64,000 bases of DNA from a virus (IMGVR_UViG_3300037313_000454:33490-97489), one strand, 5' to 3'; positions 11,112 to 31,634 are shown, counted from the first letter of the stretch. The notes: generated from the sequence alone by a model not told the origin. Numbers and translations: made by a program.

Positions 11112-11735
11112 CTACGTGCGCTCAATCTTCTCCACGGCCAGACACACTTCTAACGATAACTCATAGGGAATCAATGACTTGATTGCAGGGTCGTTAGACG
11201 CTTGTGTACCTGTACGTGAGCCTCTGGGTGCTGCCTCATGGCATGGGTCACCCTTACGGCACGGGGGCCGGAATGAAAACCCCTCTGGCATCTTGTGCCA
11301 TAAATCTGTAGGCTTCATACGCCGTTCTCCATACTGGCAATACGTCACCGTACTACGTGGGAACTGCTTTAAAACCTCTACGTTCCGCATCATTCCACGC
11401 GGATTCTCAATCACCCAATACTTGGGGTTGGCCTGTTCTATGAGCCGGACAGTATGCTCTATAATGGCGATACCGTTAAGCGCCCCGTAGCTCTTGGGGG
11501 TCTTGTCCGGGTTCCAATGTTTGCTAATGGACTGTACGCTGAAAGCTGTACAAGGTGGGCTGGCTAAGATGATGTCACACTTTGGCAGTGCATCCACCAT
11601 AAGGATGTCGGCACAGATATCAGGCTTGAACCGTGATTCGTAGTCCAGAGTGATGACCTTGTGCCCCCTATCCCTAAATGCCTTGCCCCAACCACCTAAA
11701 CCACAGAACAGGTCTAAGACCTGTAGTGTCAGACC
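11112..11735 (-). CDS. DNA cytosine-5 methyltransferase-like protein
   Basis: Motif IV ASPPCTAFS and motif VI ENPRGMM lie in the canonical ORF 11112..11600. Motif I LDLFCGLGGWGKAF is in frame upstream of the first ATG, with no stop back to 11735. The only start-like codon there is CTG at 11730-11732, overlapping the thyX TGA. Confidence 0.5.
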   Translation of the reverse strand, partial: GLTLQVLDLFCGLGGWGKAFRDRGHKVITLDYESRFKPDICADILMVDALPKCDIILASPPCTAFSVQSISKHWNPDKTPKSYGALNGIAIIEHTVRLIEQANPKYWVIENPRGMMRNVEVLKQFPRSTVTYCQYGERRMKPTDLWHKMPEGFSFRPPCRKGDPCHEAAPRGSRTGTQASNDPAIKSLIPYELSLEVCLAVEKIERT

Positions 11736-16290: not shown

Positions 16291-16732
16291 TTAGCTTGTT
16301 CTGCAATTCCTCAAATTCTTCAGCGGTGTAACTTGGCTTCTTGCGGCTGTATCCGGCATAGCGGACATACTTACCCAAACGACTCGGCTTCTGCTTCTTA
16401 GGGCGGTTAGCCTTGTCCCTGCACGGTGTGCAGAGGAAACGCTTATAGTTCGGGTCAGGATTAAACTCCTCACCATTTATGCCGACCGACACCATGACTT
16501 GCTTATGCTCTGCGAACATGTAGCACTCGGCACACTTCTGTTGGAAAACCTTATCGCCAACCGTATATCCGAATTCACTCTCGTCCATCGGAACATACTC
16601 AAACCGCTGAACTGACCACGCGCCTGTACCCTTGAACGCAGGGAATACAACCTTGGCTTGGTCTTTAAGCTGCTGAGTTTCCTCGGGGGTTGAGCCTAAT
16701 AGTTCTGAGATAGGTACTGACGCTGGTTGCAT
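16184..16732 (-). CDS. hypothetical protein
   Basis: 182 aa. TAAATG coupling with the upstream small ORF. Overlaps the endolysin start by about 107 nt. Confidence 0.45.
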   Translation of the reverse strand: MQPASVPISELLGSTPEETQQLKDQAKVVFPAFKGTGAWSVQRFEYVPMDESEFGYTVGDKVFQQKCAECYMFAEHKQVMVSVGINGEEFNPDPNYKRFLCTPCRDKANRPKKQKPSRLGKYVRYAGYSRKKPSYTAEEFEELQNKLNEQRIRNADSQSESTGTSSSDGTPEDERTNQAVSS

Positions 16733-16897
16733 TTAGATTTTCATTCCTTGTCCCGGCGTGGGTGGAACCACACTCGGTTCATTAAAGTGTTTGTCAAGGA
16801 TTTCCTTGATACGTTGCTGACGAAGGTGGTAAGCGACGCCGCCGATAGCAGCGTCAATCTCTTCGGCAATATGCTGGTTCTTAGGGATAGCCATTAT
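16733..16897 (-). CDS. small hypothetical protein (about 54 aa)
   Basis: MAIPKNQHIAEEIDAAIGG... ATG overlaps the holin-like stop (TAATG). Ends TAA immediately before the ATG of the 16732 ORF. Below the track cutoff. Confidence 0.3.
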   Translation of the reverse strand: MMAIPKNQHIAEEIDAAIGGVAYHLRQQRIKEILDKHFNEPSVVPPTPGQGMKI

Positions 16898-17205
16898 CGA
16901 CCTTTCTTAATTAGAATCTTCATCATATGGACAGAGCCTTCGGTGGTCGAAATGACATAGACCAACCCGGTCAGCCCGACAATAAAGAAGTTGCCTTTGG
17001 TAAGGGCAGCCCACATGGTGCCCCAGATAGTCACCTGCATGATGTACCAAACTCCGTTGGAACACCAAGCGGCCTTGCGATGCTCGTCCGGGTCATTCTG
17101 ATTGCGGGTGCGGCTTGACCAAGTAAAGGCCATGTTCTGGAAGTATCCAAGAACGCCTAGCACCGCGAGAAGCCCGACCGTGCTTAGAATATTTGTGATT
17201 GACAT
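16894..17205 (-). CDS. holin-like small membrane protein (3 TM)
   Basis: 103 aa with three hydrophobic segments. Lies in the lysis neighbourhood. The ATG sits about 8 nt downstream of a consensus -10, so the transcript is leaderless. Confidence 0.5.
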   Translation of the reverse strand: MSITNILSTVGLLAVLGVLGYFQNMAFTWSSRTRNQNDPDEHRKAAWCSNGVWYIMQVTIWGTMWAALTKGNFFIVGLTGLVYVISTTEGSVHMMKILIKKGR

Positions 17206-17213
17206 TGTAGAGT

Positions 17214-17242
17214 ATTATAGCAAAAAATCTTTGATTTGTCAA
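17214..17242 (-). promoter_or_regulatory. sigma70-type promoter, TTGACA-17-TGcTATAAT (minus strand)
   Basis: Reverse complement of 17237-17242 is TTGACA and of 17214-17219 is TATAAT. 17-nt spacer. Extended -10 TGC. Confidence 0.7.
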
Positions 17243-17243
17243 G

Positions 17244-17277
17244 TAAAAAAGGCGGGGCTATTAACCCCGCGCTTTTT
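17244..17277 (-). terminator. rho-independent terminator (hairpin usable on both strands)
   Basis: gcgggg-ctattaa-ccccgc flanked by an A-run and a T-run. On the minus strand it reads stem + UUUUUU after gene 17276..17518. Confidence 0.65.
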
Positions 17278-17518
17278 AAGATTCTGCTGGCGTAAAGTCC
17301 ACGTAGTAGGCTTTACCAAGCTCGAACTGCTTGGCAGCTTCCTCGTTCACCGTTCCAAGTTCAATAGTTCCGCTTGGCGTTGCCGCGTAGAACGATTTGT
17401 TCTCGTCGCTGCCTGACGTTACAGGCATCAGTTTAATCGTCTGAACTTCGCCTTTATTAGCGTCCCAGTGTTTAGTGCGGGTGATACTGTTGACAATAAA
17501 TTTAGCTCGTACTGACAT
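17276..17518 (-). CDS. hypothetical protein
   Basis: 80-aa ORF ending at the terminator. Confidence 0.45.
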   Translation of the reverse strand: MSVRAKFIVNSITRTKHWDANKGEVQTIKLMPVTSGSDENKSFYAATPSGTIELGTVNEEAAKQFELGKAYYVDFTPAES

Positions 17519-17660
17519 TACTTCTCCAATTTAAATCCGCAATGAGTCTCTACGACCTTGCGCAATTCTAGTCTTTGTTTTTCTATAGTCACCGATTGAT
17601 ACGCAATAATCCATACCAATGTTAAGACTATAAAACACACGGCAAGCTGTTCTCCTACAC

Positions 17661-19526
17661 CTACCTTACGGGACATACGCCGCCTTCACATTCCATACCA
17701 TCCAGCATCCCGCCCTCGACAACATCGTCGTCTTGTATAGGCTTAATCTTACTGGACAGCTTGTCATATTCCTCGGCAGTGATAGGCTCTTTCGGAGCCT
17801 GTACGAAGCCATGTCCGCTGTACTTAAGAAAGCTGATAGTCTTGATTTCACTCAAGTTGTTAGCCAGCCATTCCTTAATCAACGGGATTTCCTCGGCCTT
17901 GTAGTACACGGTCACCGACACAGACTGGTCAGCCCAGTGCTTCTGTGCCATCTTGAGTACTTCAAGCTGCTTCCAAGTATCCCAGCCCGTCTCCACCGTG
18001 GGTGCGCCTTGCGGTGCTGCCACGTAGAAGTCCACTACATAGGTACGCGGGTCAACCGAACCGTCAAAGTTCCTGAGCGGTTCCATATGGTGACCAGCCG
18101 CCTTTAGCTTAGGAAGCTGTGGGTCGGTAGCTGCGAATTGTACGCGCTGGATAATGTACGGAGCGAGTGCGGCGTGGATTCCTTCTTCACCTTCGCAATC
18201 GTGTACCTTACCCATCGTGCCGGACGGCTTCACGACCGTATGGCGTATGCTTAGAGGAGTTCCAAGCTCAGTGGAGTACTTCCTGTCCTCGTCCAGAATC
18301 GCGCCATACACTCTGTCGAGTACGTCACCCCGGAAAAGTCGGCTGGAAAGACACCCTGTAATACCAACTCCCACACGCCTGTTTCGTTTAATGACTTCAT
18401 CGCATAGTTCGTGATGGTAATTCTCAAGCGTAACCCTTTTACCAGCGCGGAAGCATAGTCGAGCAACTCGCTCAAACTCATCTTCTGATTGGAGATTACA
18501 CAGCGGAATTTCGAGAAGGTTGCAGGGTTCGCCATTTTCAAGTGTCGCCTCAGCGCAGGGGTTTACACCCTCTGCGGTATCTTTCATTAACTCACCCATG
18601 CGTCCATACTTCTGGATGTTCTTACGGTTGACGATGCCATACGGTTCACCAATCTCGTAGGTCTTCCAGAACGACGGGTGCAAGTCTTCAATGTCGTCAC
18701 AGACGACTGAATAGTTTGCACGGGCACGGTGGGCGGGTAGAGTCTGTAAATCCCACCGCTTGGCTTTAAGGTACTCTTTGTCCCACGGGTCACCGAGGAT
18801 GATGATGGCGGAACGACGAACGTTACCTGCCACAACCATCTGACCAATACTGGTCATTACATCGGCACAATCTATAGGCCGTAAATGCTTTCCCTCGCGT
18901 CCCACAAGGATGGTGCATAAGTTCGTGACGAATTCGACGAGGGGAATCGCACCACTAGCAATTCCGCCAAAGCCTTTAATTGGCTCTCCAAAACCACGGA
19001 GACAAACGGTAGAGTAAGTAAATGACTTGCCACTGACGAAGAAACTTTCAAGGACACGTCGGGTGAGTTCACACCATCCTTCTCTACTGTCAGGGACAAT
19101 GAAATCCGCGTCGTTGGTTGGCTTGTGGATGATTGTGACATTCTTCTTGACTTTCGGTAGTTTGCTTGAGAATCTGTGTTCAACGCTAAAACCGACACCG
19201 CCCCCTAGCATGAGCAGGTCTTGGGCTATCACAAAGTGATACCAGTCTGACGCGTTGAGATACCAGCAGTTGTTAAGGGCGACACCACCAATGCGGTAGT
19301 GTGCAGGGCTGCCTGAGAACCAGTAGCCCCGGCCAGCGAAGCCGCCCTTACGTTCCTTGCAAATCTTGAGGAACTCTTTTACTTCTGCTTCTGGCACGTT
19401 GCGGCCCCGGACGTTTCCGGCGACCGCACGTTCACAAATCTCGTCCCAGTTTTCTAATGTACCGTTATCCTTTCGGGCGTAGGTACGACGCATTACAATC
19501 TTGGCTAGGTTTGACCAAGGTTTCAA
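17661..19526 (-). CDS. ribonucleotide reductase, class II-like (monomeric)
   Basis: Active-site block [21 protein letters not shown] (NPCGE...CNL). C-terminal Cys pair CEGGVCPVR. 621 aa. Confidence 0.7.
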
Positions 19527-20518
19527 TTATCTGCTTTTATTAGTTCGTTATATAACTGCTCGAACTTCTTTGGGTTGTCGAGGAAATACTGTCGAGCTTG
19601 AAGTCTTCCCTGACCAATACGTTCGCCCCCGTATGAATACCATGCGCCAGATTTCTTAACGATTTCTCGTTCAGCGGCAAGGTCGAGGACATTCCCCACT
19701 GAATCAAAACCACTGTCGAACAGCAGATTGACGGTGGCTTCTTTGAATGGGGCAGCTACCTTGTTCTTGGCAGCTTTGATTTTTACTTGGTTACCAATGA
19801 TGACTTCACCATCTTTGACGGCACCGATACGGCGCACATCTAGACGGATACTGGCGTAGAACTTCAGCGCACGGCCACCAGTGGTAGTCTCCGGGTTACC
19901 GAACATGACACCAATCTTTTCCCTCACCTGATTGATGAAGATAAGGGTGGTGTTGCTCTTGTTAACTGCTCCGGTTAGTTTGCGTAGGGCTTGCGACATG
20001 AGCCTAGCTTGTAGACCCATATGACTGTCGCCCATCTCGCCTTCTAGTTCTGCCCGAGGTACAAGCGCAGCAACAGAATCAACGCCAACGACGCCAAAGG
20101 CACCAGACCTGACAAGTACATCGGCAATTTCAAGGGCTTCTTCTCCGCAACTGGGCTGAGAAACCAATAACTCATCTACGTTTGCTCCATTGATAGCAGC
20201 CCACTGGGGACTGAATGCGTGTTCAGCATCTATGAGAGCGCATTTCTCTCCGTTCTTCTGTGCGGTGGCGATGGCTCGAAGGAGCATCGTGGTCTTGCCA
20301 CCCGCCTCTGGCCCGAATATCTCAATCACACGGCCACGCGGGAAACCACCTACACCAAGTACCTTTGTATCTATGTCGTAGATACCAGTAGCGATAGACG
20401 GTACAGGTAATGCTACGCGCTCACCTAGCTTAACGATGGAGCCTTTACCATATGTAGTTTCAATGGTGGCTACAGCGTCAGCGGCGGCTTTATCTTTGTC
20501 TGCCTGTGTGCGCGGCAG
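19523..20518 (-). CDS. recA: RecA recombinase
   Basis: GPEAGGKTT Walker [36 protein letters not shown]. The canonical GTG start is at 20329. However a clear RecA N-terminus ([16 protein letters not shown]...[15 protein letters not shown]) continues in frame upstream to 20581 with no ATG/GTG/TTG. The candidate start is CTG at 20516-20518. Confidence 0.8.
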
Positions 20519-20532
20519 TTCAACCGCTATAC

Positions 20533-21099
20533 TTATGCTCTTGCTCCATATAGCTGCTTGAACCTCAGCAAGAAGTTCTGTTCAGCTACGTAAGGTGACC
20601 ACGGTTTAATGTGGAATGAGTAAGGTTCTACACCCATGCGCTCGACCATAAGCTTTAGAATCTCAGGGTCACCGGGACGAAGGTCGCGCTGCTCAGTGCA
20701 GAGCATACGATTGTCCGCTTCCTTAACGCTGGGATGCATCTCCAAAGGTAAGCCGTATTTCATGTTGATGACATTCTGCACGTTCTCTTCAATCTCGCGG
20801 TAGCCTGACATGGCGGTGCAATACTTGAGGGGACGGGGAATGTCAACAATGTAAGCTTCTGAGGCGTCATGCATAAGAAACTCAAACGCATATTCCTCAG
20901 GAACTTCAAAGCTGCCACGGACACTGTGTTCCGCAACGCTATAGAAGTCTCGTAAGTGTCCCGCGAAACGACAACCCAATGACAGTGCATGGGCTATGTC
21001 CTCGATACAGATATCCTCTGGGCGAGGGTCTAGCGGGTAGAACCGTTTGCACGTATACGTTGAGTAAAACGAGCCACGGTCTTGTGGTGTAACTATCAT
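20533..21099 (-). CDS. HD-domain phosphohydrolase
   Basis: H...HD motifs [13 protein letters not shown] and [10 protein letters not shown]. Confidence 0.55.
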
Positions 21100-31548: not shown

Positions 31549-31634
31549 TGGTGGTCAATGTAGGAATCGAACCTACACGTCCGAAGACACTAGCTCCTAA
31601 GGCTAGCGCGTCTGCCAATTCCGCCAATTGACCG
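31549..31634 (-). tRNA. tRNA-Leu (anticodon UAG), type II with long variable arm, CCA encoded
   Basis: Minus-strand GGTCAATTGGCGGAATTGGCAGACGCG-CTAGC-CTTAGGA-GCTAG-TGTCTTCGGACGTG-GTAGGTTCGATTCCTAC-ATTGACC-A-CCA. Acceptor stem is a perfect 7 bp. D-arm closely matches E. coli tRNA-Leu. Anticodon loop is C-U-UAG-G-A. Confidence 0.8.

Follow-up and report, generated by a model that had tools for sequence, protein, structure and literature searches.

A phage recA gene without a canonical start codon and its proposed near-cognate ATA start in a stop/start overlap

The subject of this account is a 64,000-nucleotide stretch of viral DNA (IMGVR_UViG_3300037313_000454:33490-97489, referred to below as the window), and in it a recA gene that lacks a canonical start codon. 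The window carries a phage-like array of densely packed genes on the minus strand, in which recA stands between a gene for an HD-domain protein and the gene for a class II ribonucleotide reductase (RNR). In the recA frame, a TGA (20584-20582) precedes an open stretch that begins at 20581 and is closed by the stop TGA at 19525-19523. Its 84 opening codons contain no ATG, GTG or TTG, and the first of these three to appear is the GTG at 20329. The open frame and its late first canonical codon had been noticed in an earlier, sequence-only reading of the same DNA, and they are confirmed here, as are the end of the HD gene at 20533 and the presence of a CTG at 20518. Among the real genes of the 64-kb window, only recA and a C5-methyltransferase-like gene have a start-less leader of this length.

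What does the leader of recA encode? When the product is read from the ATA at 20536, it matches the Pfam model RecA (PF00154, E = 7.6e-117, with residues 17-277 aligned to model positions 2-261) and the model RecA_C (PF21096, E = 6.1e-20), which together span residues 17-333. Moreover, residues 5-320 of the RecA of Escherichia coli align with its residues 13-329, and the N-terminal oligomerisation segment and the Walker A P-loop are found in one reading frame. The GTG at 20329 corresponds approximately to residue 61 of the E. coli protein, and it lies about five residues ahead of the P-loop, GPEAGGKT. By homology, the 69 codons upstream of this GTG are the genuine RecA N-terminus, in agreement with what had been proposed from the sequence. 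A product begun at GTG 20329 is implausible, as it would lose the oligomerisation segment together with the first strand of the core.

The comparison with other viruses gives a measure of how unusual this is. A canonical start codon is present upstream of the GKG motif in 79 of 80 related viral recA loci, and the remaining locus is cut by the end of its contig. Because all the 79 complete loci have such a codon, its lack here is exceptional among complete viral loci. The earlier suggestion that the N-terminal segment is translated from a non-canonical codon finds good support, and translation from some near-cognate codon can be regarded as quite likely.

Which codon would serve as the start? 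The closest relative among the matches listed, P0001 (encoded on Logan contig L081), is 83% identical, has exactly 337 amino acids, and its GTG start aligns with ATA 20536. The proteins P0003-P0009 (66-71% identity) all begin with M/V/L-[S/A/G/P]-I at the equivalent position, by means of ATG, GTG or TTG. Because the canonical starts of close relatives align there, ATA 20536-20534 occupies the homologous start position of recA; the comparison of start regions in related phages, which had been recommended as a check, leads to precisely this codon. A GGAG motif upstream of it would form with the anti-Shine-Dalgarno (anti-SD) sequence a duplex of -5.6 kcal/mol at a spacing of 6-7, comparable to those of the other junctions of the window in which genes overlap by 4 nt. 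In terms of what marks a near-cognate start, ATA 20536 is a one-mismatch codon at the start position of its orthologues, with an SD motif at 5-9 nt. The GTG at 20329 is without a usable SD (-2.2 kcal/mol, spacing 14). The sequence-only reading had listed ATA among its candidates, and it had overlooked both the overlap with the HD stop codon and the homologous start position.

On these grounds, the preferred reading, to which a probability of about 0.6 is assigned, is that recA starts at the near-cognate ATA 20536-20534, with the assistance of the SD motif and probably by coupling to the termination of the HD gene, and that full-length RecA would be produced at reduced efficiency. The features on which the discussion is based are collected in Table 1.

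Table 1. Features of the recA junction and of the second start-less gene, in coordinates of the window
Feature	Position	Strand	Remarks
recA, proposed full-length coding sequence	19523..20536	-	337 codons plus TGA stop; covered by Pfam models; same length as closest relative P0001
ATA, proposed near-cognate recA start	20534..20536	-	aligned with GTG/ATG/TTG of relatives; identical in L082, L089 and L097
N-terminal 69 codons omitted by automatic calls	20330..20536	-	oligomerisation helix/strand and first core strand; E. coli alignment
GTG, first canonical start	20327..20329	-	gene calls of the Joint Genome Institute (JGI) and Logan begin here (268 aa); no Shine-Dalgarno match
CTG, earlier candidate start	20516..20518	-	more probably codes for Leu at residue 7, inside the protein
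GGAG, Shine-Dalgarno-like motif	20544..20547	-	within the HD coding sequence, 7 nt upstream of ATA
HD gene stop TAA	20533..20535	-	shares two bases with ATA, giving the ATAA junction 20536-20533
Upstream HD-domain gene	20533..21099	-	188 aa; own start in an ATGA overlap with the preceding open reading frame (ORF)
recA/class II RNR junction TTGA	19523..19526	-	TTG, the RNR start, shares bases with the recA stop TGA
C5 DNA-methyltransferase-like gene	11112..11732	-	frame 11735-11112; proposed start CTG 11732-11730

The position of the ATA acquires its meaning from the organization of the genes around it. Overlaps of 4 nt, of the types ATGA, GTGA and TTGA, occur at ten minus-strand junctions of the window, about one tenth of the total, with SD-like motifs 4-9 nt upstream. 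Around recA they form a chain: ATGA between the upstream ORF and the HD gene, ATAA between HD and recA, and TTGA between recA and the class II RNR. The HD gene precedes recA in every related contig examined, and the order HD - RecA - class II RNR is kept in relatives, while the HD/RecA junction itself is labile. In L081 the stop TAA is directly followed by GTG, with a 4-nt indel with respect to the window; L086 and L090 have TAATG, L088 and L095 a 17-nt overlap, and L091 a 12-nt spacer. L093 has TTGA, and its TTG-AGC-ATA-GCA (LSIA) shows the same geometry as ATA-AGT-ATA-GCG in the window. An AGY serine is found as codon 2 because a 4-nt overlap forces this codon to begin with A.

Other observations concern the same region. 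The HD protein has a weak match to the YfbR-like 5'-deoxynucleotidase of Pfam (E = 9.5e-4), which does not reach the curated threshold. On the minus strand, the HD/recA junction has no terminator-like or promoter-like site, and the nearest promoter-like match is inside recA (19965-19938). A 7-bp A/U-rich stem, GCUAUAU/GUAUAGC (20525-20555, minus strand), would enclose a 15-nt loop that contains both the GGAG and the ATA; when the 101-nt junction region is folded, the result is no significant improvement over shuffled sequence (z = -1.69). As for the RNR gene (17661-19526, minus strand), its start is most likely TTG 19526, for a protein of 621 aa, and relatives begin with (M/L)K-x-WSNL there; the JGI and Logan calls use instead an internal ATG 11 codons downstream and give 610 aa.

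The second gene without a canonical start, the C5-methyltransferase-like gene, repeats the same arrangement. Its CTG 11732-11730 overlaps the stop TGA of ThyX (11731-11729), giving CTGA. Motif I of the methyltransferase (VLDLFCGLGG) is upstream of the first ATG (~11600), and PF00145 spans residues 4-117. The homologues, of about 203-215 aa, begin with M/L-[RK]-[VIL]-LDLF, so that their starts are 1-4 residues before [VIL]LDLF. In the window, CTG 11732 is the sole near-cognate codon ahead of motif I, and the frame is open for just one codon further upstream; a fusion with the preceding gene is impossible for this reason. The CTGA junction is identical in four other assemblies, and the JGI call (162 aa) is shortened at the N-terminus. 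CTG 11732 is proposed as the start of this gene, as the only plausible one in the sequence. Both genes of the window that have no canonical start carry a near-cognate codon at the 4-nt overlap position, a class that accounts for only about one tenth of the junctions; therefore, the data point to coupling as the factor that makes weak start codons tolerable.

Is the ATA real, and is it the only allele? The junction GGAGCAAGAGCATAAGTATAGC is identical in L082, L089 and L097, which brings to four, with the window, the assemblies with ATAA. L082 is a contig of another JGI sample (3300037420) and it is a distinct haplotype: identity is 98.26%, with 76 single-nucleotide polymorphisms (SNPs) and no gaps. 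L089 (SRR35147159) and L097 (SRR35147325) are Logan assemblies of separate SRA runs. A search of 5.8 billion proteins gave, among the matches listed, no full-length allele with more than 83% identity to this recA, ATG-started ones included. The GenBank phage collection has no close DNA relative of the window, and IMG/VR yielded no match to DNA patterns, whether exact or degenerate, of the junction and the N-terminus. In JGI metagenome contigs, the same degenerate pattern returned just three chance peptide matches, all unrelated.

The two haplotypes are also informative about coding. In both, the 337-codon frame is free of internal stops and indels. Over the 69-codon extension, the differences between the window and L082 amount in the RecA frame to seven synonymous and one non-synonymous (T57V) codon changes, with a ratio of non-synonymous to synonymous polymorphism (pN/pS) of 0.10; in the other two frames there are one synonymous and eight non-synonymous changes (binomial P = 6e-4). 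The pN/pS is 0.05 in the rest of recA and 0.07 over the 337 codons. At the level of the sequence, this synonymous excess is proof that the RecA frame is coding in the population; it is not proof of selection after the ATA arose. In fact, the SNPs are clustered: 14 are in 20525-20170 and 58 in 19116-18768, with none across 2.1 kb elsewhere. This distribution indicates recent recombination patches, and it weakens the argument based on synonymous and non-synonymous rates (dN/dS). In the part compared (16633-20988), the window and L082 form a mosaic, with a patch of about 17% divergence inside the RNR gene (19116-18768) and one of about 4% in the 5' part of recA (20525-20170), between flanks that are otherwise identical, and one patch boundary is within 11 nt of ATA 20536.

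Another intriguing question is how translation could begin on this codon. By the mechanism proposed, recA would be co-transcribed with the upstream HD-domain gene, and the GGAG would position ribosomes on the ATA, and/or ribosomes would arrive there by terminating at the overlapping HD stop TAA. The initiator tRNA would pair with AUA by accepting a third-position mismatch. Full-length RecA would be made, and by analogy with the AUA starts that have been measured, far less output is expected than from an AUG. Reporters in E. coli show initiation from AUA, AUU, AUC and CUG at some 0.02-3% of the AUG level (bioRxiv 10.1101/063800), while an AUG>AUA mutant of T4 rIIB kept about 15% of translation, and an AUA start gave 7.5% for the hydrolase of phage HB-3 (PMC5499595). 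As to the other component, ATGA overlaps support termination-reinitiation (Huber et al. 2019, PMC6728339). The sequence-only reading had offered CUG initiation, termination-reinitiation or a frameshift; coupling to the termination of HD remains a reasonable part of the picture, whereas the CTG and the frameshift are not supported, for the reasons given below. As for the origin of the junction, ATAA would arise most simply from an NTGA overlap such as ATGA, in which one G>A substitution would preserve the stop of HD (TGA>TAA) and weaken the start of recA (ATG>ATA). The sequences themselves establish the lack of a canonical start, the homology, the equivalent position of the ATA, the SD motif, the overlap and the recurrence of the junction across samples. 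The use of AUA, the contribution of coupling and the ancestral ATGA state are all inferred, the last of them because the junction is of another kind in L081, the closest relative.

Two further explanations were considered for the use of AUA. A recoding of AUA as Met is ruled out, since relatives carry ATC (Ile) at the position of an internal ATA. Nor does the window encode an initiator or Ile tRNA that would explain the use of AUA; its sole tRNA is a tRNA-Leu with anticodon TAG (31549-31633, minus strand).

Several points weigh against an SD-assisted, coupled start at ATA 20536. The sole direct experiment found in the literature answered negatively on the rescue by coupling: in an E. coli coupling reporter devoid of SD, the change of AUGA to aUAA abolished downstream translation (PMC9955659). 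By analogy with this result, reinitiation by itself would work poorly on AUA, in E. coli at any rate. In addition, the frame contains another ATA, at 20551; the SD-like GAGGU that precedes it, at spacing 9, would form a stronger duplex, -6.3 kcal/mol, although this codon does not occupy the position where the homologues start. The synonymous excess may reflect selection in donor lineages with a normal start, so that the ATA allele could be recent. Finally, the closest relative does not bear out a simple ATGA>ATAA point change: the junction of L081 differs by a 4-nt indel, and only the more distant L093 shows a 4-nt overlap.

The alternative that survives best, although it is still unlikely, is a recent loss of the start codon, from ATG, GTG or TTG to ATA, that has left recA silent or nearly so, as a very young pseudogene. 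Since the two ATA haplotypes are near-identical outside the recombination patches, the allele may be young and decay is not yet expected; the failure of aUAA in the reporter and the weakness of AUA starts in E. coli are both in line with silence. However, the ATA is the only allele across four assemblies from several samples, with no ATG allele among the matches listed, the well-placed GGAG is kept, and the frame is intact in both haplotypes. With a good SD, initiation from AUA is measurable (bioRxiv 10.1101/063800; PMC5499595). The methyltransferase gene shows a near-cognate codon in an overlap as well, and it is unlikely that two independent random knock-outs would both fall in a class formed by about 10% of the junctions.

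Does recA instead start at a different near-cognate codon? The candidates are CTG 20518, reached by post-termination scanning, ATA 20530 and ATA 20551. This alternative is less probable than the loss of the start. All three codons belong to the RecA frame and precede the conserved helix; the SD-like motif described above stands before ATA 20551, and the CTG follows the stop of HD by 15 nt, a distance plausible for reinitiation (PMC6728339). Yet none of the three is at the homologous start position, and a correctly spaced SD is absent at ATA 20530 and at the CTG (-2.4 kcal/mol, spacing 3). Residues 2-6 (SIAVE) are conserved with respect to P0001, and the L081 sequence has only silent differences there, at the Ile and Val codons; therefore, translation would start upstream of CTG 20518. 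This CTG, the codon favoured before, corresponds to an internal Leu in relatives that start upstream of it.

Recoding is very improbable. It would consist of a -1 frameshift that fuses HD with RecA, or of a start at the out-of-frame TTG 20523 followed by a -1 shift at A-AAG. RecA is indeed read in the -1 frame relative to HD, with 15 open codons ahead of the ATA, and TTG 20523 is present in the +1 frame. Against this, a scan of 20622-20536 in the HD frame revealed neither an X XXY YYZ slippery heptamer nor any homopolymer of at least 5, and 15 open codons are what chance predicts. The HD/RecA frame relation varies among relatives, with the two genes separately started. Furthermore, TTG 20523 opens an ORF of 17 codons only, lacks an SD and is absent in L081, and a fusion cannot explain the methyltransferase, the frame of which is open for one codon upstream of its CTG. 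Least credible of all is a sequencing or assembly error at the recA start codon, which had been named as the finding that would refute a non-canonical start: nothing speaks for it beyond its prior plausibility for one metagenomic contig, and it is made unlikely by the identity of the ATAA in the window, L089, L097 and the 98.26%-identical haplotype L082, as well as by the recurrence of the CTGA junction of the methyltransferase in four further assemblies.

How does the ATA of this recA compare with the systems already described? The AUU of infC is a near-cognate start, and its product, IF3, autoregulates the gene. The phage recA would resemble the AUU of infC, the AUA of T4 rIIB and the AUN/CUG reporters in having an AUN or CUG at the start position, an SD upstream, and a decoding by the initiator tRNA at reduced efficiency. 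It differs from these cases because the ATA is natural, is the sole allele in the assemblies sampled, belongs to a highly conserved recombinase gene, and is inside a stop/start overlap. Unlike infC, no regulatory logic such as the autoregulation by IF3 is evident for it. With ATGA/TGATG coupling (PMC6728339), the junction shares co-directional genes, a 4-nt overlap and an SD within the upstream gene, and this phage has many canonical ATGA/GTGA/TTGA junctions; the difference is in the restart codon, which is ATA in recA and CTG in the methyltransferase. The protein itself is similar to E. coli RecA (PDB 2REB/3CMU) over the full length, from the N-terminal helix through Walker A to the C-terminal domain, but it has about eight extra N-terminal residues, and its gene belongs to the HD - RecA - class II RNR block.

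All of this has practical consequences. Because gene callers accept ATG, GTG and TTG only, the public calls are too short for both recA (268 aa) and the methyltransferase (162 aa), and a function inferred from them would be wrong. The phage recA is probably a new natural example of near-cognate initiation, a phenomenon that is known but rare. A bolder idea, doubtful at present, is that 4-nt overlaps relax the choice of the start codon in this phage-host system, with terminating ribosomes that would restart efficiently on AUA in recA and on CUG in the methyltransferase. If this were true, NTAA and CTGA junctions would be functional, selectable starts that current gene callers systematically miss. 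In any case, two natural near-cognate starts in the overlaps of one phage offer a compact test case for a simple question: can coupling compensate for a weak start codon?

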